Below the pieces are notes generated by a model. The model made no database searches. It was not told where the DNA came from and was given only the letters and a program-made list of their open reading frames with translations. A program made the translations under genes and the position numbers. Positions 26,001 to 64,000 of a stretch of 64,000 nucleotides of DNA are shown here, piece after piece. Numbering within the stretch: the stretch's first letter is position 1; the number at the start of each line of letters is the position of its first letter. Source of the stretch: Escherichia phage EC6. Where the stretch lies: the sequence record JX560968; one strand, written 5' to 3'.

Positions 26001-26805
26001 CATCTGGTCAATACACTCGCAAGGTGTACCAGTTCTCTTATGAACTTCTCCGCATTTCTACGGAGTGTCGGACTATATCACGCAGTAGTAATACTACCGT
26101 TGCACTTGGGAATGGTCATTAGCTTACCACCCTACTCTACTCAGTTCATACATTAAGTATGCTTTTCGATAGTCTCTGAACGTTTCTCTGTTAGGAACTC
26201 TAAAATACTATTATTTACTAAGGTATGCAATTGCTCTCTTCATGTTCTCTATACTATCTGAGAACAGCCCAAGACCTCTGTTACAGTTGTGACACAGCAT
26301 ACCTCTTACCTGTCCTGTTTTGTGGTCATGGTCAACAACCAGCTTGGCTTTATGTCTTGAACCATCCATGATAAAACCTTCACCACCGCAGATTTGACAC
26401 TTGTGACCACACTTACTTAGTAACTCTTCGACCTCTTCTCTTTCTAAGCCGTAAGTCCTTAAGTAATAGTTCTTTACCCTTCCCTTTTCTCCACAAGCAG
26501 AACTGCAATACGTCTGTCTTGCTGTTCTAGGTGTAAACTGGTTATTGCAGCTTGGACATATTTTCTCTATGACACGACTTGCTGCTCTTCTGTCTACTTC
26601 AAGAACGCAGTTTCTACAACGTTTTTGATTGTACTGATATGGCTTAAACTCTTCGCCACATCTGGAACAAACTCTTTCTTTATAACCTGCCATTGTCTCT
26701 CTCCCATTTCTACTATAGGAGTCCTAACAGAGACTTCGCTGCTGATTACCATATCTTTACAGACTTAGGCTTCCAGCAATTCACAACGTTTTACATGCGC
26801 CACTG
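26001..26805 (-). mobile_element. group I intron (about 805 nt) in DNA polymerase gene, carrying an HNH homing endonuclease ORF
   Basis: Exon 1 ends ...AUCUAUGCGU; intron starts CAGUG-GCGCAU (P1: exon AUGCGU pairs with GCGCAU, U-G at splice site); intron ends ...GACCAGAUG; 3' part has GACUAUCG, GUAGGGU, GAUAUAGUCC elements like T4 td-type introns; joined exons restore ...KAKNGIYA-LLFGAGDEK. Confidence 0.6.
26211..26693 (-). CDS. HNH homing endonuclease (endonuclease VII-like) inside the intron
   Basis: Cys-rich zinc-binding N-terminus and HNH core LVVDHDHKTGQVRGMLCHNCNRGLG. Confidence 0.7.
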   Translation of the reverse strand: MAGYKERVCSRCGEEFKPYQYNQKRCRNCVLEVDRRAASRVIEKICPSCNNQFTPRTARQTYCSSACGEKGRVKNYYLRTYGLEREEVEELLSKCGHKCQICGGEGFIMDGSRHKAKLVVDHDHKTGQVRGMLCHNCNRGLGLFSDSIENMKRAIAYLSK

Positions 26806-28948
26806 ACGCATAGATACCATTCTTAGCCTTCTTACGGCCTTTAGTTATCTCGTGAAGAAGTTCTTCATCCTGAGTTTCTCTACAACGAATAATGTCATCC
26901 TCTTTGTTCAATGCAAAGTAGATGCTGTTAAGCGTATGTGCATCAGTACCTGTATACACCTCATATAAGTCATTATCCATATCGTAACGACAATACTTGT
27001 CAGTCTCTGGATTGAGGTACTTGTCAAGATGTTTGCAGTAGTACCGTCCATCATCCTGTTTAGTGAACTCGACAAACTCTTTACCTTCAGTTACTGCTTT
27101 AGTGAACTCTTTATCACCCATAAAGTTACACAGTAAAACAAGCTGTGCAGAGTTCTGGTCAACTGAAACGATGTTAGTCCCTTCCTCACAAATCCACACC
27201 TCCCTCATAGGTGCTCCATAGACAGCAGCACCAGATGGTACGTTTACAATACCATACTGCGTCATACGTCCAGTTGAAGTACCAAACACCATTGCACCAG
27301 CACTAAGGCGACCATCTGGACGAATCTGGTTCAACCAACCTTTTTCATCATCCTTTGAGTTCTCAATAGTTCTGCGTCGGTGCATCAAAGTATAGTACTT
27401 AGCAATCTTCTGTCCAAGTTCACCTTCAATCGTATCATAAGATGATTCAGTAAGTTTTGGTGAAGTACGGATTAAGCAAGGCTCAAGCAAATCTGTGTAC
27501 TTCTTCACAGACCAGTTATGCTCAATGTACTGTACACCTTCATGTTCAACATAACTCAAACCACACCGCTCAACCATTTCCTGCCACTTAGGATGCTTTG
27601 TAATCATCTTTTTATTGTCTTTGAAACGACAAACTTTGACAGGGTGACCATCTGAGTCTTTCTTGTAGTTCCAGTCATCTGGAATCCAACCAACTGATTT
27701 CAAGTAGTCTTTAACAACTGCTACCTGAGTCATACGAGAAACTTCAAACTCAATTGGTGTATATGGTGCATCAATCAAACCTGTGTAGCGACTTGACTCA
27801 AGTTCAAAGTGGTTAACAACGTGGCTGTTATAGTACTTCACAGTTTTGACTGTTTTTACTGGCTTCCAGTCTTTGCATTTCTTACCAATCTTTGCATTCA
27901 ACTCATTGCAAATTGCACGAGCATCCTTCATTGCTACAAAGCCTTCCTTGTACTCTTCACCAGTTACAGAGTTGGTTGGTGTATAGCAATTTCTCTTTTC
28001 AATGTTAAAAATCTTTGTAGTTGGCTTACCAAATGGCTTGATTTCGTATGTCTGCATCTCACCGTTACGTACCTGCTGACGATACTTTGTCTTAGGATAC
28101 TTGGTAATCCTCTTCAGTCCATCTGCATGACCAAATGTTTCAACATACTCATTCCAAGCTTTTGCAAACTCTTCTCCAGTGACTTTACCTTTGGTCTTAA
28201 TAGTTGGAGGAAGATGTGGTTCAACCTCTGAAGCAAGCTCATTAGTCAACTTGTCAAGTTCCTTTACATGGAACTCCATAAGCTCTTTATCAGCTTTCCA
28301 ACCATTGATAGCTTGTTGACTCATCCAGAAAGATGTTTCTTTAGCTCGCATGTAAGTTTCATAAGTGTCTATACCACACTTCTTAAGCTTGAGATACTCG
28401 TTATCAAGTGCCCGTTTAGTTTTGGCGTTAATACGGATATCTTCTACAACACGAGTGAAGATTTCTGCATTCCACACACCCCAATGTTCAATCTCTGGTT
28501 TACGAACACCAACACGAGCACCCCATGCAGCCAAACCATGAGCACCTTTATAACCCTTTGGAGTTGGTCTATCCATCCACTGAACACGAGACTGGATAAG
28601 AGAATCCTGAAAGAAATTACTCCACGGTTTACACTTTGGATTATCAAAGTTCCATAAATCAGGTGCAATGTGATTGAAAACCCACCAGTCATAACCGAGA
28701 CCGTTGTGGATGCAAAGACGTTTTGCCTTTAACGCAAACTCAATACCTTCACGTAAGCCACCCTTGATGTACTTGGTATACTTGTGACCGAGGATAGGCT
28801 CATCTGTAAAGACCCATACAGGTGGCTCTTCATCATCAGATTTATAGTCTGCGAAAGCCATTACGTGCACTTTAGTGAACTCAAGGAGTAAACCATCAGT
28901 TTCTGTATCACCAACTAAATGTAAGTTTTTAAAATCTACGTTTTCCAT
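26806..28948 (-). CDS. family A DNA polymerase, exon 1 (3'-5' exonuclease and N-terminal polymerase domains)
   Basis: Exo motif LVGDTETDGL (cf. Pol I DTETDSL); ends ...GRKKAKNGIYA (first half of motif B); likely start is ATG at 28948 (GAGGGAG RBS) rather than track start 28978. Confidence 0.75.
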
Positions 28949-29629: not shown

Positions 29630-29893
29630 ATGAATATCGATGTAGAAAAGATGCTTGAAGAGAAAGGTGTTGATGAAGCATTCTTAATCAATGCCGTAGA
29701 AAGCATGGCTATGATTCTTCGTGGTAATAACTACACAGAACAGTTTATGCCTGCAAGCTATAACTTGCCTGAAGACAAGTCTGATAACGGTGCTTTTGCA
29801 GAACAGGTTAATATGATGTTGACAGACACTACACTTGCTCTGGCATCTATTGCGGTTGGTGTTGATGCACTTGCTGAGTTCAGTTTTTTATGA
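29630..29893 (+). CDS. hypothetical protein
   Basis: 87-aa ORF. Confidence 0.3.
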   Translation: MNIDVEKMLEEKGVDEAFLINAVESMAMILRGNNYTEQFMPASYNLPEDKSDNGAFAEQVNMMLTDTTLALASIAVGVDALAEFSFL

Positions 29894-33422: not shown

Positions 33423-33491
33423 TAGTTATAAAAGAGAGGGGTTCATACCCTTCTTTGAAGAAAAAGTTTAAATGAATTTCAGGAAGAGTGT

Positions 33492-34815: not shown

Positions 34816-35863
34816 ATGGAGAAGTACACATTAAAAAAACCTTCCCGATTCAGTTACACATGTTTTTATCGACTCTGACAGTATTGCCTATAAAGGGGCT
34901 TGTGTAGTTGAGAAAGCAAAATATAAATACGTCAATAAACTCACAGCAGAAGAGTCTGAACCATTTGATAATGCAAAAGATGCTGCAAGATGGTTAGCAG
35001 ACCAGAGAATCCTTGTGGAAGAGCTTGGCCTAGCATTTGATGAAGATGAATGGGAAAGACAGACTTGGAAAGAAGCTAAGAGTGAAAAAGAAGCTATCAT
35101 GGCTACTCAACAGGTGCTTCAGGAATGGCTTAAGGTTGTTGGTAAAGAAAGAACTTGGGTAGGTTATTTAACAGAGAAAGGTGTGCATAAACATAAAGAC
35201 ATTAAAGGTCTTGAGCACCAATATCAAGGTAACCGCAAAGATGCTGTCACACCAACACACTTAGTTGCTTGTCGTGAATATCTTCTGTCAAGACCAGAGT
35301 TCAAACTAATTCTTGATGGATTTGAAGCTGACTCTATCGTGATTGCTAAAGCTGAAAAGATGGGTAAAAAGGCTGCCTTAATGAGTATTGATAAAGACCT
35401 TCGACAAGCTGAAGGTACTTACTGTATTGATATGACTTATGAAAAGTCGCCTTTGATTTTCATTGCTGATAACAACGTTGGTGAAATTTGGGATTGTCCA
35501 ATAAAATCGACACCAAAAGCTAAGAAGACAGTTGGGGTAGGTTTTAAATTTCTTTGCTATCAAGCCGTGGCTGGTGATAATGCGGATAATTATTTCGGTT
35601 TAAAGGGTGTTGGTAAGGTTACTATAATGAAAGCCCTTGAAGGTAAAACCACTTACAAAGAGTGTCTTGATGCAATTTATGAGCTTTATGCTAAGAAAGA
35701 GTCATACACTTATGTCTCGTGGGATGGTCAAACAATTACCAGAACACCTTTAGAGTTAATGCAGCAACACTTTTTCTTAGCTTATCAGGAAAGAAACAAG
35801 AAAGATGATTTCACTTTTGATAAGTATGGGTGGACACCAAATGTTAACTCAACAAACTCTTAA
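34816..35863 (+). CDS. 5'-3' exonuclease / flap endonuclease (RNase H-like), reading frame interrupted at A7 run 34833-34839
   Basis: ATG 34816 gives MEKYTLKK then stop; +1 frame continues ...VFIDSDSIAYKGAC (FEN N-terminal motif) into track ORF 35015..35863 with H3TH motif AGDNADNYFGLKGVGKVT. Confidence 0.6.
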
Positions 35864-36332
35864 AGAATACCTACACTATGACCCCGAAACAGGGGTCTTT
35901 ACTTGGATTAAGAAGTCTGCTAAGCACACAAAAATTGGTTCTGTTGCAGGTACAAACTTAAAAGGTTACATCCGAATTTACTTGTTTGGTAAAGGGTACT
36001 ATGCGCATTCATTAGCTGTCCTATATATGGATGGTTATCTTCCTGAGTGTGTTGACCACAAGAACCATGTAACTCTAGACAATCGTTGGTTAAATCTGAG
36101 GGCATGTACACTATCAGAGAACCAATGCAATAGGTTGCTTAACAAAAACAATAAATCCGGTGTCAAAGGTGTGTACTACAACAAGAGGTATGGTAAGTGG
36201 TCTACACAGATAACTTTTCAGAAGAGAGTTTACTTCTTCGGCAACTATGACACGATTGAGGAAGCAGCAGAAGTTGTGAATAGAGAACGTCAACGTTTAC
36301 ACAAAGAGTTTGCTAATAAAGGTGATGAATGA
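35841..36332 (+). CDS. free-standing HNH homing endonuclease with AP2 DNA-binding domain
   Basis: HNH core VDHKNHVTLDNRWLNLRACTLSENQCN; AP2-like SGVKGVYYNKRYGKWSTQITFQKRVYFFGNYDTIEEAA. Confidence 0.6.
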   Translation: MLTQQTLKEYLHYDPETGVFTWIKKSAKHTKIGSVAGTNLKGYIRIYLFGKGYYAHSLAVLYMDGYLPECVDHKNHVTLDNRWLNLRACTLSENQCNRLLNKNNKSGVKGVYYNKRYGKWSTQITFQKRVYFFGNYDTIEEAAEVVNRERQRLHKEFANKGDE

Positions 36333-42616: not shown

Positions 42617-43813
42617 ATGAACAAAGTACAAATTATTAAAAAGAATGGCTCACTTGAAGAACCGGATATCAAAAAAGTTTTAGCAGCAGTCACAAAGTCG
42701 GCTAATAGGGTTGGTTATAAAGAGCTTCCACCAGATGTTACTCAAGCTCTTGAGTCAGCATTTATGAGGATTCTGGTAAAATCTACTAAACAGAATAATT
42801 TGCTAATCTCGGTAAATGATATCCACAGTATTGTTGAGGGTGCTTTGGCAGAAGTCAATCATGAGATTTATGAGTCTTACTCAACATATAGAAATTACCG
42901 TAAAGAGGTTGCTCAAAATTGGGATGAGCTTTACCAAAAGACTAAAGACACACTCTTCTTAGGTGACCGTGAAAACGCTAACTTTGACAGTAGTTTAATT
43001 TCTACAAAAGGTTCAATTATTCGTGGTTACCTGACTAAAGAAATCTTTAAACAGTACCATTTAACACCAGAGGAACTTGAAGCCATTGAAAAAGGGTTTA
43101 TCTATATTCATGATTTAAGAGACCTGATTTTTGGTGGTATCAACTGTTGCCTGTTTGACATTGGTAAAGTGCTGAAAGGTGGCTTTGAAATGTCTGGCAT
43201 TGAATACTGTGAACCAAAGTCTGTACTGTCAGCTTTACAGGTTATTGGTGATGTAGTTCTTTCAGCAACTGCACAGCAATTTGGTGGCTTTACTTTAGCA
43301 GAGATTGATAAGGTACTTGTACCGTATGCTAAGAAGTCTCTACGTTACCATGCTGAAAAAGCAACAGCTTATGGTATTCCTAAAGAACATTACCACAACT
43401 ATGTCATGGAGCAGCTACAGATTGAATTAACTCAAGGTTTTCAGTCTCTTGAAATGAAGCTCAATACCGTACCTTGTAGCCGTGGTGATTTTGCATTCAC
43501 AACTTTAACATTTGGTTTACTTGACCCAGACATGTCTAATGAAGACAACCGATTACAATACATGATTGCAAGTACCCTCCTAGATGTTCGTATGAATGGA
43601 CAAGGTAAGAGCAAGAAGCCTGTTGTATTTCCTAAACTGGTTTATATTTATGACCAGAAGAGACACGATGAGAATATCTGTCAAGGACACCTGTACAGTA
43701 AAGCCATTGAGTGTTGCTCTAAAGCAATGTATCCAGATTTCTTAAGTGTATCTGGTCATGGTGCTGTAGCAGAGGCTTTTGAGCGTTCTGGTAAGGTTAT
43801 TTCACCGATGGGT
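42617..43813 (+). CDS. nrdD: anaerobic ribonucleoside-triphosphate reductase, exon 1
   Basis: N-terminal ATP-cone (IIKKNGSLEEPDIKKV); ORF ends ...ISPMG where intron begins with UAA. Confidence 0.75.
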
Positions 43814-44129
43814 TAACAAGCTCTATAGCTCATCTAAAACGTGCCTAAACAGGGAAACTCTACAGATGTAGACAATCCTGTGCTAAATGATGTATGATGT
43901 AAGAAACTATACAACATAGGAGTCTTACATGCCAAATAACTTCGAATATGAGTTTGAATACATCTAAATGCCGAACGACTAACCGTGATGAATGTAGCGG
44001 TGTAGGGTCAAGCGACTCGAAATGGTACGCTACTTAGAAATAAGTAGAAGATATAGTCTGGACTTACTGGCGACAGTAAGCAGCTTGAATAAAGCGGGGT
44101 AAGCTTAGCGAACTTACCTGAACAACAAG
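43814..44129 (+). mobile_element. ORF-less group I intron (about 316 nt) in nrdD
   Basis: Starts UAACAAGCUC right after exon AUGGGU (P1 with intron GCUCAU at 43828-43833); core resembles T4 td-type introns (CUAAACAGGGAAACUCUACAGAUGUAGACAAUCCUGUGCUAAAU; GUAGGGUCAAGCGACUCGAAA; GAUAUAGUCUGG); ends ...CUGAACAACAAG; exon 2 resumes in frame. Confidence 0.7.
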
Positions 44130-45077
44130 TGTAGAGCATTTTTATCACCATACCATAACGAATATGGCGAAGAGTTTTATGTAGGTCGTGCTAACATCGG
44201 TGCTGTTTCTTTGAACTTACCAATGATTTACCAGTATTCTAAAGAGAATGGTTTAGATTTCTGGAAGGAGCTTGATAAGTACCTAGAGATGATTCGCAGC
44301 TTCCACAAGAAACGCTACGAAATGATTGCTAACATGCCAGCAAGTTCTAACCCTCTGGCATTCACACAAGGTGGTCTGTACAAAGGGACTAAGAAACCTA
44401 CTGACAAGGTTGGTTGGGATATCGTGAAGTCCTTCACAGCTTCTTTTGGGGTTACTGCGCTTGATGAACTATCTGTTCTTGCTGAAGGTAAACGACTTCA
44501 TGAAGTTGGAAGTTCTAGTTTTGCATACGATGTTCTGGCATACATTAACATGAAAACTGAAGAGTTTAAGAATGAAGATGGCTTCCTGTATGCAGTATAT
44601 GGCACTCCAGCAGAGTCATTGTGTGGAACTCAGCTAAAACAGTTCAGAGATATGTTTGGCGTTATCAAAGGCGTTTCTGATAAGGAATATTTTACAAACA
44701 GTTTCCATATGAATGTTGCAGCAGATATCTCACCATTTGAGAAGCAGGACTTAGAAGAGCCATTCTTCCATATCTGTAGAGGCGGCAGAATCCAGTATGT
44801 GAGGGTAGCTAACCCAGAAAACTTACCAGCACTTAAAAGTTGTATTACAAGAGGGATGTTGAAAGGCTTTTATCAGGGACTTAACTTTGACTTAGCAATC
44901 TGCGAACATTGTGGCAACAGGCCAAAGGCTGATGTTGAAGAATGTGAGGTTTGCCATTCACATGACATCTCTGTGATTAACAGAGTGTGTGGATATCTTG
45001 GGTGGACTAAGATTAAAGGTGAATCCCGAATGAATGATGCAAAAATTGCTGAGATTCGTGATAGGGTTTCTATGTAA
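44130..45077 (+). CDS. nrdD: anaerobic ribonucleoside-triphosphate reductase, exon 2
   Basis: Begins CRAFLSPYHNEYGEEFYVGRANIGAVSLNLP; C-terminal zinc ribbon CEHCG...CEVCH and glycyl-radical motif RVCGYLG; spliced product about 714 aa. Confidence 0.75.
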   Translation, partial: CRAFLSPYHNEYGEEFYVGRANIGAVSLNLPMIYQYSKENGLDFWKELDKYLEMIRSFHKKRYEMIANMPASSNPLAFTQGGLYKGTKKPTDKVGWDIVKSFTASFGVTALDELSVLAEGKRLHEVGSSSFAYDVLAYINMKTEEFKNEDGFLYAVYGTPAESLCGTQLKQFRDMFGVIKGVSDKEYFTNSFHMNVAADISPFEKQDLEEPFFHICRGGRIQYVRVANPENLPALKSCITRGMLKGFYQGLNFDLAICEHCGNRPKADVEECEVCHSHDISVINRVCGYLGWTKIKGESRMNDAKIAEIRDRVSM

Positions 45078-45431: not shown

Positions 45432-45537
45432 TTAAGTTGAACAAAAACAGTTAGAGTGGATTAAAGATTACGCCTCAGAGTGTGGCTCTTGCGAAAAGAA
45501 TCACGTAAGATACTCAACATTTCATACGGTCTTCACA

Positions 45538-45857: not shown

Positions 45858-46342
45858 ATGAATTACATGGAGATTAGACCATTTGACACAGCTAATGGTG
45901 AAGGGGTTCGTGTAAGCCTCTTCGTAGCTGGCTGCAAACATCACTGTGAAGGCTGCTTTAACAGGGAGTCTTGGAAATTTAATGCTGGTAAAGAGTTTAC
46001 TTATGCAAACCTCTATGGCATCATCAAGTTAATGGATGATAATGCTATCAGTGGGCTGTCAATACTTGGTGGGGAGCCTCTGGATGATAGAAACATTCAA
46101 GACGTTACCAATATATGTAAACGTATTAAAACTGTTTACCCAGAAAAATCTATATGGCTTTGGACAGGTTTTCAGTTACACGAAAAATCCACCTCGATGT
46201 GATGAAATATGTTGACGTGGTGATTGATGGTAAGTATGATTCTTCTAAACCAACAGTTAAACCTTATCGTGGTTCTGATAACCAAAACCTCTGGAGAAAA
46301 GAGTATGGATGGCAAGGTGATTGTCAATGGCGAGCAGAATGA
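45858..46342 (+). CDS. nrdG: anaerobic ribonucleotide reductase activating protein (radical SAM), frame interrupted at A5 run 46184-46188
   Basis: N-terminal half has CKHHCEGC (CxxxCxxC) and IWLWTGFQLHE; -1 frame continues KIHLDVMKYVDVVIDGKYD...RGSDNQNLW, matching NrdG C-terminus. Confidence 0.65.
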
Positions 46343-51322: not shown

Positions 51323-53690
51323 ATGCGCATGGTAAACGACCACGCAGAAGTGATTAAGAGTTCAACTTCTTTAGAGACGTCTCAGGCACAGATTACAATG
51401 ACACCTGAAATGTTCAGCCTTTTGAGTTCTGGTGTATATACCTTTAAAGAAAGGGCAGTCATTCGTGAACTGTCATGTAACGCAGTAGATGCTCAGAAAG
51501 AAGCTGGAAAAGAGAACATCCCTTTCCATGTGCATTTACCTACTCGTTTTGAGCCTTACTTTGAAGTTCGTGATTTTGGAACTGGATTGACTCATGATAA
51601 AGTTATGAGTTTGTATCTAAACTACGGGGCTTCTACGAAGAATGACTCTAATGACTACATTGGTGCAATGGGTATCGGCTCAAAATCTCCATTTGCAATT
51701 GCTCAGTCATTCACAGTATCTAGCTATGTTGATGGTGTTGTTAATAAGTACTCTGTTTATCTTGAGAATGGTATCCCTCAAGTAACTAAGCTGACTACTA
51801 ACCCAATAAAAGAACCTAATGGTTTAGCTGTACGTGTAGCAGTTGCTGACCATCGTATCTCAAAGTTCTTTGAAGAGGCTGGTCACGTATACTCATACTT
51901 TGCTGTAAAACCAGAAAGTAATATCGAGTATGACGATATATTAGCAGATATGAACGTCATTGCCCGTGAAGAAGGTGTTTATGATGCCATGATTCATAAG
52001 CAAAGCTGGCGTTCTAGTGGTAACAGGACAGAGTTTAATGTGGTGATGGGTAATATTGCCTATCCAGTGAACATGGAAGCATTACTTGGTGATGATTTCT
52101 TCAAAGTATTGCCAGAATTTTTCCGTAGGAGCGTAGACCTTGTAAACATCTACATGCCTATTGGTTCAGTTGCTATTGCAGCTTCTCGTGAAGCATTGCA
52201 GATGAATGACACGACAAAAAACTGTTATCATTGAGGCTACTAAAAAGATAACTGAAGCAATTACAAAGGATGTTATCAAGAAAGTTAACAGTCAACCTAC
52301 ACTTATGGATGCTGCACAGGCTTATGCTGAGTTACGTTTGAACTCACGAGAGATGTTTAATGCTGTGTGTCCAAAGCTAGAGTGGGGTGGTGTTAAGCTT
52401 GATTCTCTGGAAGAAGAATTACTAAACATTCGTCGTGGAATTATCTACGCAGAAGACGGCTCAGTTATCTATGAACGTGATGGTAAAGGTAATATTAAGG
52501 TTGATAGGAACGGAAACAATATCCCTAAAGTAGATTATCTTTATAATCCAGTTGCTTATGTTAAGTTCAACTCTTTAGAAAGTAAGATTCGTGCAACAGC
52601 ACTTTCCTACACTCAAGAGGCAAGTATGTTCAATATCTTTGGCGCAATGCGTAAAAGTCAAATTGAACAGTTTTTGTTTGTTATAAACGACCGTCGCAAT
52701 AAAAATGGTACTGAGAAGACTGTAGGACGCAATCAGATTCTGCGTGGTGCATGTCGAGACTATGCCAGTGAGTCTAGTCTGTTTCACAGATACAACGGTA
52801 TCGTCTTTGTATTCTCGACTGAAAAAGAGTTAGACAACCTAATCAATCTGCACAAACTTGATAAAAGCTTGTTAAAGATTGTGAAGATGTCTGATAAGGA
52901 ACATCATTATCAGCGTAAAGAAGCTGTAAGAGGTGTTGTAAAACTTTGGAAAGCTGTTCCAGCAGAAGGTGTAGCTTCATACAAAGAGGTGTCAGAGGAC
53001 TTAGATACGATTGAAGAACCTCAGCTTTACATTAAGGCAATTGGTGACACAGTTGATGGTGAATGTTTTTGCTCATCTCCAGAAGATGTAGCTAAGTCAG
53101 TTGCTAATGTTACAGGTAAGACAGTCTATGTTTTCCGAAAAGCAAATTGGAAAAAGATACCAGAAGATTGGATTGAAGTAGATGAGAAACTCTTGAACGA
53201 CAGCTTAACTGATGTTCACTGGATTAACCATAACAGATATATGACGCGTATCTATATGAATGGTGTCCTTGACCTTACAAGCAGTTGGATTATTGCCAGA
53301 AACTTTACATTCAATAACAGGAAGATTTCTCGTGGTTATTGCTATTCACGGGATACAAACAAAACTATCTTCCTAGAAGGAAATGAAGAGGCTGTAGAGG
53401 CAATGTTCGGTAAAATCCAATACGTTGCTGCACCGTTTGCATACACTTATACTATTAGTAGATTGCAAACTTTGAAAGAATGTCTTGACAACGATACAAA
53501 GCTGTACAAGAAAATCAAGAAAGCTGGTGACCGTATGGTCATTAAGGTGACAAACTACCTTTCAAAAAGAAAACAAGAAAACTTCTTGCTTTCTCATTTA
53601 GATTGGAATAAAGTGTCACCCATCGAAGTGAGTAAGTTCTTGGGCTTTGATGTGAAGTGTGTTCCAGAAGGGACTACAATTTACGATTAA
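51323..53690 (+). CDS. rIIA: rIIA-like protein with GHKL ATPase N-terminal domain; two overlapping ORFs (51323..52234, 52206..53690) joined by a frame change at A6 run 52216-52221
   Basis: Bergerat-fold motifs ELSCNAVDA, RDFGTGL, GAMGIGSKS; combined about 797 aa; followed by rIIB-like gene as in T4. Confidence 0.5.
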
Positions 53691-53769: not shown

Positions 53770-54879
53770 ATGACTACTAAAACTAAAGCACAGATTGACG
53801 CAGAAATTTACAAACTGGTTAAAGAAGGTAAGCTGACTAAAACAGCTATTGCACAGAAATTTAATACTTCAACCCGTTCAGTCGGTCGTGCTGTAGAGCG
53901 TCATGAAGCAACCTTAAAAGGGAATAAGAAGGCAACTTCTACACCAGCTACGAAGACTTTGAAACAAGTTGCTAAGACCTTTAAGAAGAAAGCTGGAAAA
54001 CCAGTTGAAAAGGTAGTTAAAGACGCTGTACAGAAAGCTCCAGTAAATAAACTGCACGAAGCTATGCAGAAAGATGACAAGATTGAGTACATGATTACTG
54101 GTGACTCTGTAATTATGACTTACGGTTCAGAATCTGAAATTGTTGAGTCTACTCATCCGAACTATCAAGAGATTGTAGTTCATGTTGTGAAAGGTGAGTT
54201 CAAGAAAGCTTTCGAACTGATGAACATTCGTAAATCTATCGAAAACTTCACTCAGGGTGCTATCACAATCAAAGGTGACAAGTTATTCTACGGTGCTGTT
54301 GAGATGCGTTCTACTCTGGTTGACCGTATTCTTCACATGATGAAGACTGGTGATAAAGGTTTTGAACGACTTGTAATGTTCTTCGAAAAACTGATGGAAA
54401 ACCCATCTAAAGACTCTGTAGAACAACTTTGGGGATTTGTATCTCACCTTGATGTTGAAATTGATGAAGAAGGCTACATCATTGGTTGGAAGAAAGTCTC
54501 TACTCGTGAAGGCAAGCTGGTTGACTCTCACACCTACAAAGTACCTAATGATTTGGGTAACATTGTAGAAATGCCACGTTGGATGGTTGATAACAACCGT
54601 AACGTGACTTGCTCTCAGGGTCTTCATGTTGGTGCTTGGGATTATGTCCGTTGCTTCTCAGGTGATACAATTCTGAAGGTTCGTGTCCATCCACGAGATG
54701 TTGTATCTGTTCCGACTGATTACAACGATATGAAGATGCGTTCATCCCGTTATGAAGTTGCAGCAATCGTTGATAATCAACGTAAAGTGTTGAAAGCATG
54801 GGACGGTAAGACTGACGCTTTGCATGTCATCGTTGGCACTGCTGGTGAACTCATCTCTCAACGTAAACGTGAAATCTAA
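53770..54879 (+). CDS. rIIB: rIIB-like protein
   Basis: 369 aa directly after rIIA-like gene; C-terminal region incl. VHPRDVVSVPTDYNDMKMR recalled as rIIB-like (from memory, unverified). Confidence 0.45.
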   Translation: MTTKTKAQIDAEIYKLVKEGKLTKTAIAQKFNTSTRSVGRAVERHEATLKGNKKATSTPATKTLKQVAKTFKKKAGKPVEKVVKDAVQKAPVNKLHEAMQKDDKIEYMITGDSVIMTYGSESEIVESTHPNYQEIVVHVVKGEFKKAFELMNIRKSIENFTQGAITIKGDKLFYGAVEMRSTLVDRILHMMKTGDKGFERLVMFFEKLMENPSKDSVEQLWGFVSHLDVEIDEEGYIIGWKKVSTREGKLVDSHTYKVPNDLGNIVEMPRWMVDNNRNVTCSQGLHVGAWDYVRCFSGDTILKVRVHPRDVVSVPTDYNDMKMRSSRYEVAAIVDNQRKVLKAWDGKTDALHVIVGTAGELISQRKREI

Positions 54880-59859: not shown

Positions 59860-60240
59860 ATGGCTTATCGTGCACCTAAATTCATCAATAAAGACAACTT
59901 CCGCAACGCACTGGAAAAATCACTTGATGAGAACTTTACAGGTCAGATTATTATTGTTCACGCATATAATTTTAAGTATGATATTAACGGGAATAAAATC
60001 AATCATTACACGGCAACAATGGTAGATGGTACACTATCAAGTGAAAAAGCCGTACTGAATGCACTTGCAGGACGTGGCAAAAACCTGATAAAATGCAATA
60101 AGAGACGTTATCAAGGCGGCGCATATGGTTATGATGATGCTGTTTACCATCTTGAAAATATGGGCTATCAGGTGGAAAAAGCCGGAATATCTCAAATAAT
60201 TGGCAGTGATGGATATGTGACAATTTTCAAAATTAAATAA
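59860..60240 (+). CDS. early hypothetical protein
   Basis: 126 aa; own promoter/stem-loop cassette and AGGAGA RBS. Confidence 0.45.
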   Translation: MAYRAPKFINKDNFRNALEKSLDENFTGQIIIVHAYNFKYDINGNKINHYTATMVDGTLSSEKAVLNALAGRGKNLIKCNKRRYQGGAYGYDDAVYHLENMGYQVEKAGISQIIGSDGYVTIFKIK

Positions 60241-60247
60241 AAAGTAC

Positions 60248-60329
60248 TTTACAAGGGGCTTATAGTTCGATAAAGTAAGCCCCAGATAAAGAGCTTTACC
60301 ACTAAATCCTTAAACTAGGAGATTCAAAA
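60248..60329 (+). promoter_or_regulatory. promoter-hairpin-SD cassette (type II)
   Basis: TTTACA-N17-TAAAGT with GGGGCTTA...TAAGCCCC hairpin spanning spacer and -10; then CCTTAAACTAGGAGATTCAAAAATG. Confidence 0.5.
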
Positions 60330-60842
60330 ATGAAAACTGTAGACGCTACCTTTGAAGTTGTAAAAGAAAAATTTTCCATCATTTACGAAGCGGTTAACTG
60401 CTACGAAGCAAGTCATAGCCTTGATAATTGGGAATTTACAGATAATCATCAAGGTGGTGTTACTGTTAAAAATCCTAACTATCAGCGTAATGAGTTTAAA
60501 TATGCAATCCCTTTACATTACAGCCTGAAACAGCTTTCGAGTGACTATGCAAAACAAGGACGGGCAAATCCATCAAAAGAGGCTTATATCAGCTTACAGG
60601 AAGAACTAGAAAGGGATTTGGAGGCTTCAGAGTATAATATCTCTGCAAAAGTTGTGGATGTAAACGGGAAAACGGTTTTAGACAGCTTTTACATTGGTTA
60701 CGCTTTCGATTGGTGCTACAGTGACGGCGATGATTTAGATGAAAGACTAAAAGAGGAAGTGAACAACGCAGACGCAGAATCTGAAGTATTAGAACGCTTG
60801 GAAGCCTTAAAAGATTCAGTGATGAATATCTTTAAAAATTAA
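60330..60842 (+). CDS. early acidic hypothetical protein
   Basis: 170 aa, acidic C-terminal half (DGDDLDERLKEEVNNADAESE). Confidence 0.45.
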   Translation: MKTVDATFEVVKEKFSIIYEAVNCYEASHSLDNWEFTDNHQGGVTVKNPNYQRNEFKYAIPLHYSLKQLSSDYAKQGRANPSKEAYISLQEELERDLEASEYNISAKVVDVNGKTVLDSFYIGYAFDWCYSDGDDLDERLKEEVNNADAESEVLERLEALKDSVMNIFKN

Positions 60843-60858
60843 ATTAAGAGGGAACACC

Positions 60859-61191
60859 ATGTTAATGATGGGTATCACTGCAATCATCGCCATTATAGCA
60901 CTTTATAAGGCTTACAGCGCCTATAATCTGGCAAGTAAGGCAATCACGCAACAGGTTAACAATAATCTCGTGATGAGCTTTCTCGAGCGTTTAAGCGATG
61001 AGCAATTGAAACGGTTAGAAATGAGCTTCAGATTTCAATCAAAAACTTATCAAATCAGCGACATTTTCAAAGAGGATTTTCAGCTTGTCGATGATTATAA
61101 CGCACTGATAAATGCTTTAAATATCAGTGACTTAAAAGACTACTATGCTGTAATTGTTCAAGAAATGAGCAAACGAAAAAATTCCTCTTGA
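60859..61191 (+). CDS. early membrane-anchored hypothetical protein
   Basis: 110 aa, N-terminal TM MLMMGITAIIAIIALY. Confidence 0.4.
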   Translation: MLMMGITAIIAIIALYKAYSAYNLASKAITQQVNNNLVMSFLERLSDEQLKRLEMSFRFQSKTYQISDIFKEDFQLVDDYNALINALNISDLKDYYAVIVQEMSKRKNSS

Positions 61192-61281
61192 TTTTGGTTT
61201 TTAAAGCAAGTAAATTACTAATCAACGGGGAGGGGATGACCTTCCCCACTAAGTAAAACCCTTAAACTAGGAGATTCTAAA
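61188..61281 (+). promoter_or_regulatory. promoter + 5' stem-loop + SD cassette (type I)
   Basis: TTGATT-N17-TAAATT, ACTAATCAACGGGGAGGGGATGACCTTCCCCACTAAGTAAAACCCTTAAACTAGGAGATTCTAAAATG. Confidence 0.55.
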
Positions 61282-61554
61282 ATGTATACTACTAACAACG
61301 GTCGCACCTTAAACGTAACCCTTCGCCACTATGTGAACGGTGTAATGCACTTCGAAGATTTACAAGCTGAACAACATATTCTGAATTGGCAACTTGCAGG
61401 ATTCCAAAAAACTGCTACCGGATACGGGAAAAAGATTCCAACTAGTTGGAAAGTATACTACGAAGGACGTTTGCGCAGAATTTATCAGGATGTTTACAGC
61501 AATAGCGCAACAAGTTACATCATGGTAAAAGGTAAAAAATTGCACTTAGTGTAA
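61282..61554 (+). CDS. early hypothetical protein
   Basis: 90 aa. Confidence 0.4.
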   Translation: MYTTNNGRTLNVTLRHYVNGVMHFEDLQAEQHILNWQLAGFQKTATGYGKKIPTSWKVYYEGRLRRIYQDVYSNSATSYIMVKGKKLHLV

Positions 61555-61559
61555 AGTAC

Positions 61560-61641
61560 TTTACAAGGGGCTTATAGTTCGATAAAGTAAGCCCCAGATA
61601 AAGAGCTTTACCGCATTAACCTTAAACTAGGAGATTCAAAA
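61560..61641 (+). promoter_or_regulatory. promoter-hairpin-SD cassette (type II)
   Basis: Near-identical copy of 60248..60329. Confidence 0.5.
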
Positions 61642-62046
61642 ATGGCTATCAATAAACGCGAATTATCAATTTTAAAAGCACGTTTGACCGTTAACCGGAT
61701 TAATGTTATTACGTCATCAGCACCAGACGAGACACTGCAAAACATTATTGGGAAGATTCAAAGTGTTATCTTAGACGTTGAAAGCGTAAAAAACTCACTG
61801 ACTGACGTTGCAGCAGGTATCACCTTAAACGGTGCACAATATGAAATGGCTGACATGTTAGGCAAATCTAAGGTAATGAATAAAGAGCTTGATTTGAAAA
61901 TGTTCAGATTCGCCGTAAAAGTATGGTTATCCGTCGATTATGACGCAAATTTTGCAATCGCTGACTTTTTCGCAACATGGTTACAACGTAATTTGACAAA
62001 TCACGATTTTCGTGATATCTGCGATGCAATTTATGCAGAACTTTAA
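61642..62046 (+). CDS. early hypothetical protein
   Basis: 134 aa. Confidence 0.4.
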   Translation: MAINKRELSILKARLTVNRINVITSSAPDETLQNIIGKIQSVILDVESVKNSLTDVAAGITLNGAQYEMADMLGKSKVMNKELDLKMFRFAVKVWLSVDYDANFAIADFFATWLQRNLTNHDFRDICDAIYAEL

Positions 62047-62061
62047 AAAAAAAAACTTTTG

Positions 62062-62156
62062 TTGACACTGGTTTTTAAATAGATTAAATTGTCAATCAAC
62101 GGGGAGGGAATGACCTCCCCCACTAAGTAAAACCCTTAAACTAGGAGATTCAAAAA
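62062..62156 (+). promoter_or_regulatory. promoter + 5' stem-loop + SD cassette (type I)
   Basis: TTGACA-N17-TAAATT; hairpin GGGGAGGGAATGACCTCCCCC (compensatory T-to-C change gives a perfect stem). Confidence 0.55.
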
Positions 62157-62357
62157 ATGGCTATTATTAACGGTTTAAATATTGAGACTACTCACATCAA
62201 AGACATTAAAGTTGGCGATATAGTCCTTTTTCACGGCGTAGAAAAAACCGTCACCGCAAAGGATATCAAAGAGGATTCATTCATGGGCCGGTCTCTCTTC
62301 GGTGATTCGTATTGCTTAGGTTACCGTGCAGTTTTAAAAGTTGTCAAAAATAACTAA
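62157..62357 (+). CDS. early hypothetical protein
   Basis: 66 aa. Confidence 0.35.
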   Translation: MAIINGLNIETTHIKDIKVGDIVLFHGVEKTVTAKDIKEDSFMGRSLFGDSYCLGYRAVLKVVKNN

Positions 62358-62365
62358 TAAAGTAC

Positions 62366-62447
62366 TTTACAAGGGGCTTATAGTTCGATAAAGTAAGCCC
62401 CAGATAAAGAGCTTTACCACTAAATCCTTAAACTAGGAGATTCAAAA
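62366..62447 (+). promoter_or_regulatory. promoter-hairpin-SD cassette (type II)
   Basis: Third near-identical copy (TTTACAAGGGGCTTATAGTTCGATAAAGTAAGCCCC...). Confidence 0.5.
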
Positions 62448-62990
62448 ATGAAATGCTTTCACGGTACTACTCAAGAAAACTTCACCAACCTGATTAATAA
62501 CGGCGATAAGCCATCAGGTGCATGGAATTGTTCGGATATGGACGGCAATTTTTACGTGTATCCAGAAAATAAAATCTATGGCGACGATGCGGAAGAGATA
62601 GCATCCGAAGGTATCCAGCAAGCTCTGGGCAATGCCACTATCACCGCAGCTTTCCAGATGAAAACTCAAAACATTGTTATCTTGGAACTTGATATTCCAG
62701 AAGACGAGTTAAATGATGATTATTCTTGCGATAATATGTCTGGCGTGGCAAGTTTTACGGAATATTTCGATTTAAACTGGATTAAAAAGGTTTACACCAC
62801 TGAATTTAATGCCATGTTTTCACCATTTTGTCTGCCTTCACTGGATAACCCGAATTTAAACTATATTGATGAGTCTCTGGAACTCCTCGCTAAAAGCGTT
62901 CAACAGTCCGACAGTATTCAGGTTTTTTGTGACATCATGGACACACTGACGGAAAACATCATAGAAAGAGATTTGAAGGGCTTTTTCTGA
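62448..62990 (+). CDS. early acidic hypothetical protein
   Basis: 180 aa, Asp/Glu-rich. Confidence 0.4.
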   Translation: MKCFHGTTQENFTNLINNGDKPSGAWNCSDMDGNFYVYPENKIYGDDAEEIASEGIQQALGNATITAAFQMKTQNIVILELDIPEDELNDDYSCDNMSGVASFTEYFDLNWIKKVYTTEFNAMFSPFCLPSLDNPNLNYIDESLELLAKSVQQSDSIQVFCDIMDTLTENIIERDLKGFF

Positions 62991-63022
62991 AAACCTATAC
63001 AATCACCTTATAAACACTATTC

Positions 63023-63043
63023 AGCCCCTTGCAGGGGCTTTTA
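63023..63043 (+). terminator. rho-independent terminator
   Basis: AGCCCCT-TGC-AGGGGCT then TTTT. Confidence 0.45.
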
Positions 63044-63056
63044 AAGGGCTTTAATC

Positions 63057-63290
63057 ATGCTTACAACCGTTTACCTTATCCTTTCCATCTGTAATGGACA
63101 TTCATGTGATTTTAAAGGTCTCGAGGAGTTTACAGGGAGTAAAGAAAATGCTATTCAGGTTTGCCAGATAGCAAGACAAGACTACCCCGCCAGTGATGAT
63201 ATTCAATGTTACTTTAAGACAGAAGACAGCGACGGCGTTTATTTTGACAGCGTTGATGGTCAATATGAAATTATCATTGATAAAGACTAG
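63057..63290 (+). CDS. early hypothetical protein with hydrophobic N-terminus
   Basis: 77 aa; MLTTVYLILSICNG. Confidence 0.35.
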   Translation: MLTTVYLILSICNGHSCDFKGLEEFTGSKENAIQVCQIARQDYPASDDIQCYFKTEDSDGVYFDSVDGQYEIIIDKD

Positions 63291-63380
63291 ACAAGCCGGA
63301 TAAAAGTCTGTAAATTACTAATCAACGGGGAGGGGATGAACTTCCCCACTAAGTAAAACCCTTAAACTAGGAGATTCAAA
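63288..63380 (+). promoter_or_regulatory. promoter + 5' stem-loop + SD cassette (type I)
   Basis: TAGACA-N17-TAAATT overlapping upstream stop; GGGGAGGGGATGAACTTCCCC hairpin. Confidence 0.5.
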
Positions 63381-63722
63381 ATGGCTTATGTAACTGTAAT
63401 TACTGATAAAGCTGATTCATCTTGGCCAACTCAAGTAAGCGATAAGATGACACCTATGCAGTGCCTAAAATACTTTGAGCAATGGAATAAAGGAGAAGGT
63501 GTCAGCCCCTTTCAAGTGATGCAGGTTATCCATGTAAGCGATAAAGGGATTAAAACAGTTTTAAACAGTGAACACTATACAACACGATTTGAAACGAGAT
63601 GTAAAACGATGAAACTGTTACGCGAATCCGGTTATTCTCATATTGCCGCGCTAATCTGGGATGACTTGCTAAAAAATCAGCGTATCAGCTACGTAAAACC
63701 TGAAAAAATATTCATCAGTTAA
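63381..63722 (+). CDS. early hypothetical protein
   Basis: 113 aa. Confidence 0.4.
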   Translation: MAYVTVITDKADSSWPTQVSDKMTPMQCLKYFEQWNKGEGVSPFQVMQVIHVSDKGIKTVLNSEHYTTRFETRCKTMKLLRESGYSHIAALIWDDLLKNQRISYVKPEKIFIS

Positions 63723-63754
63723 TCAATAACTTACAAAAAACTTCTAAAAAAGTG

Positions 63755-63783
63755 TTGACAATACCCCTTGACATTGGTAACTT
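63755..63783 (+). promoter_or_regulatory. sigma70-like promoter TTGACA-N17-TAACTT
   Basis: TTGACA 63755-63760; second overlapping TTGACA at 63768-63773. Confidence 0.35.
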
Positions 63784-63852
63784 TGTTCGAGGGGGTTTAT
63801 CTTAAAGGGATTCACTTAAAAGATTTCTTTAAAGATAAACTTAAAAAATTGC

Positions 63853-63946
63853 TTGCAATCAGATATCAAAACAAGTAAATTACTAATCAACGGGGAGGGA
63901 ATGACCTTCCCCACTAAGTAAAACCCTTAAACTAGGAGATTCTAAA
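63853..63946 (+). promoter_or_regulatory. promoter + 5' stem-loop + SD cassette (type I)
   Basis: TTGCAA-N17-TAAATT; GGGGAGGGAATGACCTTCCCC hairpin; AGGAGATTCTAAAATG. Confidence 0.5.
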
Positions 63947-64000
63947 ATGAACAAATTTCAAGCTATCAACTATATTCGTTCCGTCAATGTCATGTCTAAA
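63947..64000 (+). CDS. early hypothetical protein (3' end outside window)
   Basis: ATG after type I cassette; reads MNKFQAINYIRSVNVMSK to window end. Confidence 0.35.
   Translation, partial: MNKFQAINYIRSVNVMSK

Follow-up and report, generated by a model that had tools for sequence, protein, structure and literature searches.

In the 64,000-nucleotide (nt) stretch of Escherichia phage EC6 analyzed here (sequence record JX560968; hereafter, the window), an rIIA-like gene located upstream of an rIIB-like gene is read as two overlapping open reading frames (ORFs), raising the question of whether the split belongs to the phage or to its recorded sequence. ORF1 (51323..52234, + strand, 303 amino acids [aa]) and ORF2 (52206..53690, + strand, 494 aa), the latter in the +1 frame relative to the former, share 29 nt around a run of six adenines (A6, 52216-52221), and direct reading of the sequence gives the stretch 52210-52225 as CACGACAAAAAACTGT. 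The coordinates of both ORFs, their 29-nt overlap, and the A6 run had been reported in an original prediction, and all of them proved exact when compared with the sequence and the ORF list. ORF1 and ORF2 correspond to the N- and C-terminal parts of one ordinary rIIA gene of an rIIA-rIIB pair, and their reading frames part at a single extra C (position 52222, + strand; a +1 frame shift) that is private to the EC6 sequence. The split very likely represents a homopolymer-associated sequencing or assembly error, in which case the phage itself would most probably have an intact rIIA.

The two ORFs as parts of one rIIA gene

On the basis of sequence comparison, the window belongs to a Felixounavirus, i.e., a Felix O1-like myovirus. 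A 4-kb query around the site matched 275 phage records, including 209 with 90-97% identity across the greater part of the query, nearly all of them Felixounavirus (Felix O1-like myoviruses of Escherichia and Salmonella); for a 25-kb query, the top identity was about 95%. In NBEco005, JH2, and vB_EcoM_H12, the region is annotated as a single coding sequence (CDS) for an "rIIA lysis inhibitor" of 788 aa (2367 nt), and the gene order in these three relatives is the NAMPT gene, two small genes, rIIA, and then rIIB located 80 nt downstream. As it stands, the whole EC6 gene (51323..53690, + strand) is 2368 nt long, one base more than in the relatives, and is read as two ORFs with no uninterrupted rIIA ORF of about 725-790 codons. 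Deletion of base 52222 yields a single open frame of 788 codons, whose product is 97-99% identical to annotated Felixounavirus rIIA, in agreement with the earlier proposal that the two ORFs, once fused, give an rIIA-sized protein. The proposed rIIB-like gene is likewise present: an intact rIIB (53770..54879, + strand, 369 aa) begins 80 nt downstream of rIIA, matches PHROG 609 (E value 3e-89), and encodes a protein sharing 98% identity with the rIIB annotated in NBEco005.

The assignment of ORF2 to the C-terminal region of rIIA, which the original prediction had offered without verification, is borne out by alignment of both ORFs to full-length rIIA homologues, which places them as parts of one protein. 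In the profile of PHROG 612 ("RIIA lysis inhibitor"), ORF1 matches positions 1-287 of 725 (E value 1e-131) and ORF2 matches positions 286-716 (E value 6e-50), such that the two matches are collinear and abutting. Because both ORFs match one rIIA profile in adjoining stretches, their pairing is not a matter of chance. A search of 5.8 billion proteins returned 19 homologues of ORF2, 17 of which are full-length, at 772-791 aa, with 95-100% of ORF2 covered and aligned to their C-terminal ~490 residues; the two shorter ones are a 354-aa protein found on short contigs only and an rIIA-rIIB deletion product. No unrelated stand-alone family to which ORF2 could belong appeared among these 19 homologues. 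The rIIA of phage T4 also aligns to aa 23-317 of the repaired protein, across the junction of the two ORFs (31.6% identity, E value 2e-30, tblastn).

The GHKL ATPase assignment of ORF1 rests on homologues, motifs, and predicted fold, because direct Pfam scans of ORF1 and ORF2 gave nothing above threshold (for HATPase_c, the E value was 0.12 at residues 45-99). In homologues 70-80% identical to ORF1, HATPase_c_3 is detected at residues 45-162 with scores of 25.8-27.6 bits, against a cut-off of 25. The GHKL motif residues, namely, E49/N53/D56 of the N-box, D84/G86/G88 of DxGxG, and G114/G117/G119 of GxxGxG, are invariant in an alignment of 13 sequences. A search of the PDB by sequence returned no meaningful match. 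An AlphaFold2 model of ORF1 (mean predicted local distance difference test [pLDDT] score of 67.5; predicted template modeling [pTM] score of 0.67) was matched by Foldseek to Hsp90, GRP94, TRAP1, HtpG, GyrB, and ParE, with E values from 3e-10 to 2e-8. The earlier identification of ORF1 as a GHKL ATPase is thus upheld by the Pfam scores of its homologues, the invariant motifs, and the predicted fold. The break at residue 300 lies after the module, in a stretch of low confidence in the model (residues 280-303, pLDDT below 50). An intact rIIA of 788 codons would therefore comprise an N-terminal GHKL (Bergerat-fold) ATPase module of ~300 residues and a C-terminal region of ~490 residues.

In codon terms, codons 1-300 of ORF1 constitute the N-terminal GHKL-ATPase module of rIIA, and its last three codons (C-Y-H) and stop are out-of-frame read-through. 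The first five codons of ORF2 (MTRQK) represent a fortuitous out-of-frame start, and from 52223 on, ORF2 corresponds to rIIA codons 301-788. The A6 run (52216..52221, + strand) is read as ACA AAA AAC in the frame of ORF1.

The part of the gene beyond the shift is not decayed. In the repaired frame, the C-terminal 489 codons of rIIA differ from those of three relatives by 44-58 synonymous and 5-8 non-synonymous changes, and the N-terminal part differs by 12-41 synonymous and 2-3 non-synonymous changes. The C-terminal part has been under strong purifying selection up to the present, indicating that the frameshift, if real at all, is very recent.

The extra C and other private indels of the window

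Alignment with three, and then five, relatives contrasts ACAAAAAA[C]TGTT in EC6 with ACAAAAAATGTT in the relatives. The run is A6 in all five aligned relatives and in the EC6 sequence alike, and the extra C lies directly 3' of it. The original prediction, which had joined the two ORFs at the A6 run, was therefore right about the location, since the break directly adjoins the run, with the correction that the lesion is an inserted base at 52222 that leaves the run length unchanged. A 101-nt query centered on the site found 208 phage records, none of them 100% identical; for the best 24 of the 208, identity was 99.0%, with a record span of 100 nt and a single gap as the only difference. An exact 34-mer containing the C had no match in IMG/VR, and a gapped pattern allowing any 5-8 bases at the tract recovered 18 IMG/VR and 9 metagenome contigs, all of which have A6 and none of which has the extra C. 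The tract is A6 in the 35 copies fetched from GenBank records, IMG/VR, and metagenome contigs, and A7 in one contig from Logan.

The site in rIIA is not the only one of its kind in the window. With a private indel defined as a 1-nt difference of the window from all five relatives (NBEco005, JH2, CRP22, P219, and Felix O1) in a base-level alignment, 10 such indels were found, and all of them lie in or beside runs of at least four identical bases. Positions in or beside such runs make up 8.8% of the window, and the probability that all ten would be so placed by chance is about 3e-11. Eight of the ten fall inside seven conserved genes (rIIA and six more). When the annotated NBEco005 proteins were compared with the window by tblastn, abutting frame changes were detected in five genes (at 29883, 33461, 36584, 46183, and 52222), compared with zero when the same test was repeated on the five relatives; two further genes, for an exonuclease and a 131-aa protein, are disrupted within their first 10 codons.

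Apart from the rIIA site, the private indels are distributed as follows. The gene for a 266-aa "minor tail protein" is broken by a G inserted before a T6 run (29883, + strand; on the other strand, an A6 run followed by C), a change absent from 107 records, and it also carries a private A5-to-A4 deletion at ~30407 (+ strand). A conserved 93-aa gene is broken by shortening of A6 to A5 (33457..33461, + strand). At codon 9 of the 5'-3' exonuclease gene, an A7 run is followed by one C too many (34833..34841, + strand); there is no start codon in the homologous frame before 35015, and 66 N-terminal residues are lost. An extra C directly after an A6 run (36584, + strand), absent from 186 records, breaks a 165-aa "NAD synthetase" gene. 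In the conserved 131-aa gene, an A-run shortened by 1 nt at codon 5-6 (45439..45447, + strand; position 45443) leads to a stop at codon 9, and nrdG (161 aa) is broken by an A6-to-A5 change (46183..46187, + strand) that is absent from 202 records. The remaining two are located outside these genes: a T6-to-T5 change in an intergenic region (5981) and a G4-to-G5 change in a terminator stem (48933). Searches of the whole phage collection with the sites at 29883, 36584, and 46183 showed them to be no less private than the one in rIIA. In four of the five insertions, an A-run is directly followed on its 3' side by an added C, as read from one of the two strands; this shared form suggests a systematic process rather than Streisinger-type slippage, by which the length of the run would be altered.

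Variation at A-runs of rIIA was also observed in two other records. In Logan assembly SRR10816084, contig _502 (L014) is the one with A7 instead of A6 at the rIIA tract (~10010), giving the same "MTRQK..." second ORF. In the same contig, a deletion at ~10429 joins rIIA codon ~437 to rIIB codon ~239, to encode a 274-aa protein (P0017). This deletion recalls T4 r1589, an rIIA-rIIB fusion deletion. The contig contains two more 1-nt deletions in neighboring genes (~4767 and ~12382), rendering its quality uncertain. In vB_EcoM_ULIM9 (OQ850288.1), rIIA is annotated as two CDSs, with an A5-to-A4 change at a different A-run (rIIA nt ~1498).

Explanations for the split

In the explanation judged very likely, the extra C would stem from base calling or from the consensus, as an error of a type that clusters at homopolymers; in the terms of flow chemistry, it may be described as an over-call in the flow that follows a long A signal. 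All ten private indels are inferred to be errors and not mutations, and the type of sequencing chemistry is likewise an inference. Seven broken conserved genes would be an implausible load for a viable isolate, particularly with a replication/recombination nuclease (the exonuclease) and an annotated tail protein among them. Homopolymer consensus errors that occur in sets are a common artefact. Flow-based sequencers are known to under-call long homopolymers and to over-call zero flows, leaving frameshifts in assemblies (PMC3623719; PMC2323236). The window resembles the homopolymer errors of such instruments (454 and Ion Torrent) in that its private single-base indels are confined to runs of at least four bases, long runs are under-called, a base foreign to the run appears after a long run ("over-call of zero"), and genes are frameshifted. 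It differs in that an A-run followed by an added C is not documented as a form of error in PMC3623719 or PMC2323236 and is only consistent with them. Classic 454 "carry-forward" was considered as a source of these insertions and was ruled out, as no C-run follows the insertion.

Several points weigh against this explanation. An A-run followed by an extra C is not the classic length error of homopolymers and could not be assigned to any one platform. The evidence for an error comes from comparison of sequences. A real null allele of rIIA would be viable, the gene being dispensable on ordinary laboratory hosts, and A-run events in rIIA recur, whether real or artefactual (SRR10816084; ULIM9). Moreover, nine of the ten private indels are located at 29.6-53.7 kb and none in the structural module, with a probability for such clustering of about 1e-3 against the density of runs of at least five bases and about 0.03 when only + strand A-runs are counted; seven of the indels are at + strand A-runs, and such runs are enriched at 29.6-53.7 kb. 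The clustering could hint at selection on real mutations, a point that is unexplained but weak.

The main alternative, an unlikely one, is that the frameshift is genuine and very recent, and that the stock used for sequencing had acquired a null or leaky mutation in rIIA while being isolated or propagated. Such a mutant would be like the classical rII frameshift mutants of T4, either favored by plaque picking or neutral where no matching defense system is present. The rII genes of T4 are dispensable on permissive hosts; the intact selection downstream of the shift also fits a very recent event. In Felixounavirus Bas63, rIIA/B was found by PhageMaP to be needed only against the defense system qatABCD (PMC11482910, preprint), the main text of which gives no per-gene Bas63 essentiality values for the exonuclease or tail gene. 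Within T4 rIIA, the A6 run is a hot spot for frameshifts, with reversion about 10,000-fold faster than that of a point mutation (bioRxiv 10.1101/2025.10.21.683753), and an independent assembly has A7 at the very tract in question, together with an rIIA-rIIB deletion. Residual full-length protein could also be made in such a mutant, through +1 slippage of tRNA-Lys on A6 or polymerase slippage with loss of one A. Both routes would bring back the frame with one substitution, N300T (TTKTVIIEA), and deletion of one A was checked and does restore it. However, an inserted C next to a run of unchanged length is not a slippage product, and the extra C was found in no other sequence among the GenBank phages, IMG/VR, and metagenomes searched. 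In addition, the extra C is accompanied by nine other private indels at homopolymers that together disrupt six further conserved genes, the exonuclease and tail protein included, a load not easily squared with a viable phage. If the extra C were true, EC6 would represent a Felix O1-like phage with a naturally mutant rIIA, of modest interest for the study of rII versus abortive-infection systems.

Quite improbable, by comparison, is the proposal that the conserved A6 at rIIA codons 298-300 is a real frameshift-prone switch in Felixounavirus, comparable to the T4 locus. Under this proposal, EC6 (A6 plus C) and SRR10816084 (A7) would be two independent "off" alleles at one tract, and the neighboring A-run would allow fast reversion or leaky expression, since loss of one A restores the frame at the cost of N300T only; rII function would then be toggled according to host defense systems. 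One feature of a contingency locus, a homopolymer of at least six bases inside an ORF, is present (A6, 52216-52221). As for variation in tract length, EC6 and the 35 other copies have A6, and one Logan contig, which has other 1-nt deletions too, has A7. The site is similar to the A6 contingency locus of T4 (Benzer hot spots) in having A6 inside rIIA, a frameshift at the run, and A7 in a second assembly. It is dissimilar in that EC6 has an inserted C beside a run of unaltered length, and the two A6 runs need not be homologous in position.

Programmed recoding, in which A6 would serve as a site of ribosomal frameshifting or transcriptional slippage to produce a short GHKL protein and a fusion protein in a set ratio, is very improbable. 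A_AAA_AAC is a textbook slippery heptamer that promotes -1 shifts; it is in phase with ORF1, and a shift on the A-run into the frame of ORF2 would give a near-native protein. Yet the direction is wrong, as ORF2 is in the +1 (-2) frame and the -1 frame stops within about 10 codons. A stimulatory structure is absent as well: the downstream 100 nt fold at -11.1 kcal/mol, compared to a shuffle mean of -16.0 (z = +1.67), and thus fold worse than shuffled sequence. The two-frame layout is not conserved, with all relatives examined having a single ORF with the same A6, and recoding is disfavored on this ground because recoding sites are conserved along with their two-frame arrangement. Six other genes of the window are broken in like manner. 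Programmed frameshifting was therefore rejected on the basis of motif direction, lack of downstream structure, and lack of conservation.

Natural gene fission, with the GHKL module and the C-terminal region acting as two working proteins and ORF2 initiating at the ATG at 52206, is the least credible explanation: although ORF2 has that ATG and the break falls in a low-confidence stretch of the model that could be a linker, 17 of the 19 ORF2 homologues are full-length fusions, the T4 rIIA alignment crosses the junction, the same ATG occurs out of frame in the relatives too, and no Shine-Dalgarno-like motif was seen upstream of 52206 on reading the sequence.

With a homopolymer-associated error as the very likely cause, the two ORFs are better annotated as a single rIIA gene or, until resequencing, as a gene with a frameshift. 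Given that at least seven genes of the window are affected, other findings of split genes or recoding in it need the same check.

Neighboring elements and comparison with known rIIA systems

Several other interruptions and insertions were observed in the window. A group I intron (Rfam RF00028, 53.6 bits, E value 9e-11) at 43756-44080 (+ strand) interrupts nrdD, the exons of which are located at 42617-43825 and 44130-45074; at this position, relatives have no insert, a similar insert, or one that carries an HNH homing endonuclease. An insert of ~800 nt (26001-26807, - strand) interrupts the DNA polymerase gene and holds a Cys-rich ORF of 160 aa (26211-26693, - strand); in JH2, the equivalent ORF is annotated as endonuclease VII and has a DNA polymerase CDS on either side. 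Between the exonuclease and the NAD-synthetase-like gene, an ORF of 175 aa (35805-36332, + strand) is present where NBEco005 has nothing and where an HNH endonuclease is annotated in CRP22 and Felix O1; it is probably a mobile endonuclease insertion. At 60200-63950, a leader of ~100 nt, ending in ...CCACTAAATCCTTAAACTAGGAGATTCAAAAATG, is repeated before many small early genes, and an A11 run is found near 62052.

The rIIA-rIIB locus of Felix O1-like phages is an already known system. The EC6 gene shares with the rIIA of JH2 (YP_009219465.1), NBEco005 (QIQ68436.1), and Felix O1 (NP_944777.1) its location, with nadV (NAMPT) and two small genes ahead of it and rIIB behind it, and, after removal of one base, its length of 788 aa and an identity of 97-99% over the full length. 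It is set apart from them by the extra C at 52222, which occurs in EC6 only and gives rise to the ORFs of 303 and 494 aa. The phenotype that characterizes the T4 rIIA family comprises rapid-lysis plaques upon loss of the gene and protection against Rex-type or other abortive-infection systems. Compared with the rIIA of T4 (725 aa, "protector from prophage-induced early lysis"), that of Felixounavirus has about 60 more residues, and its C-terminal region is found by profile only and not by pairwise BLAST; what the two have in common is membership in PHROG 612, an N-terminal GHKL module, and an rIIB gene immediately downstream.

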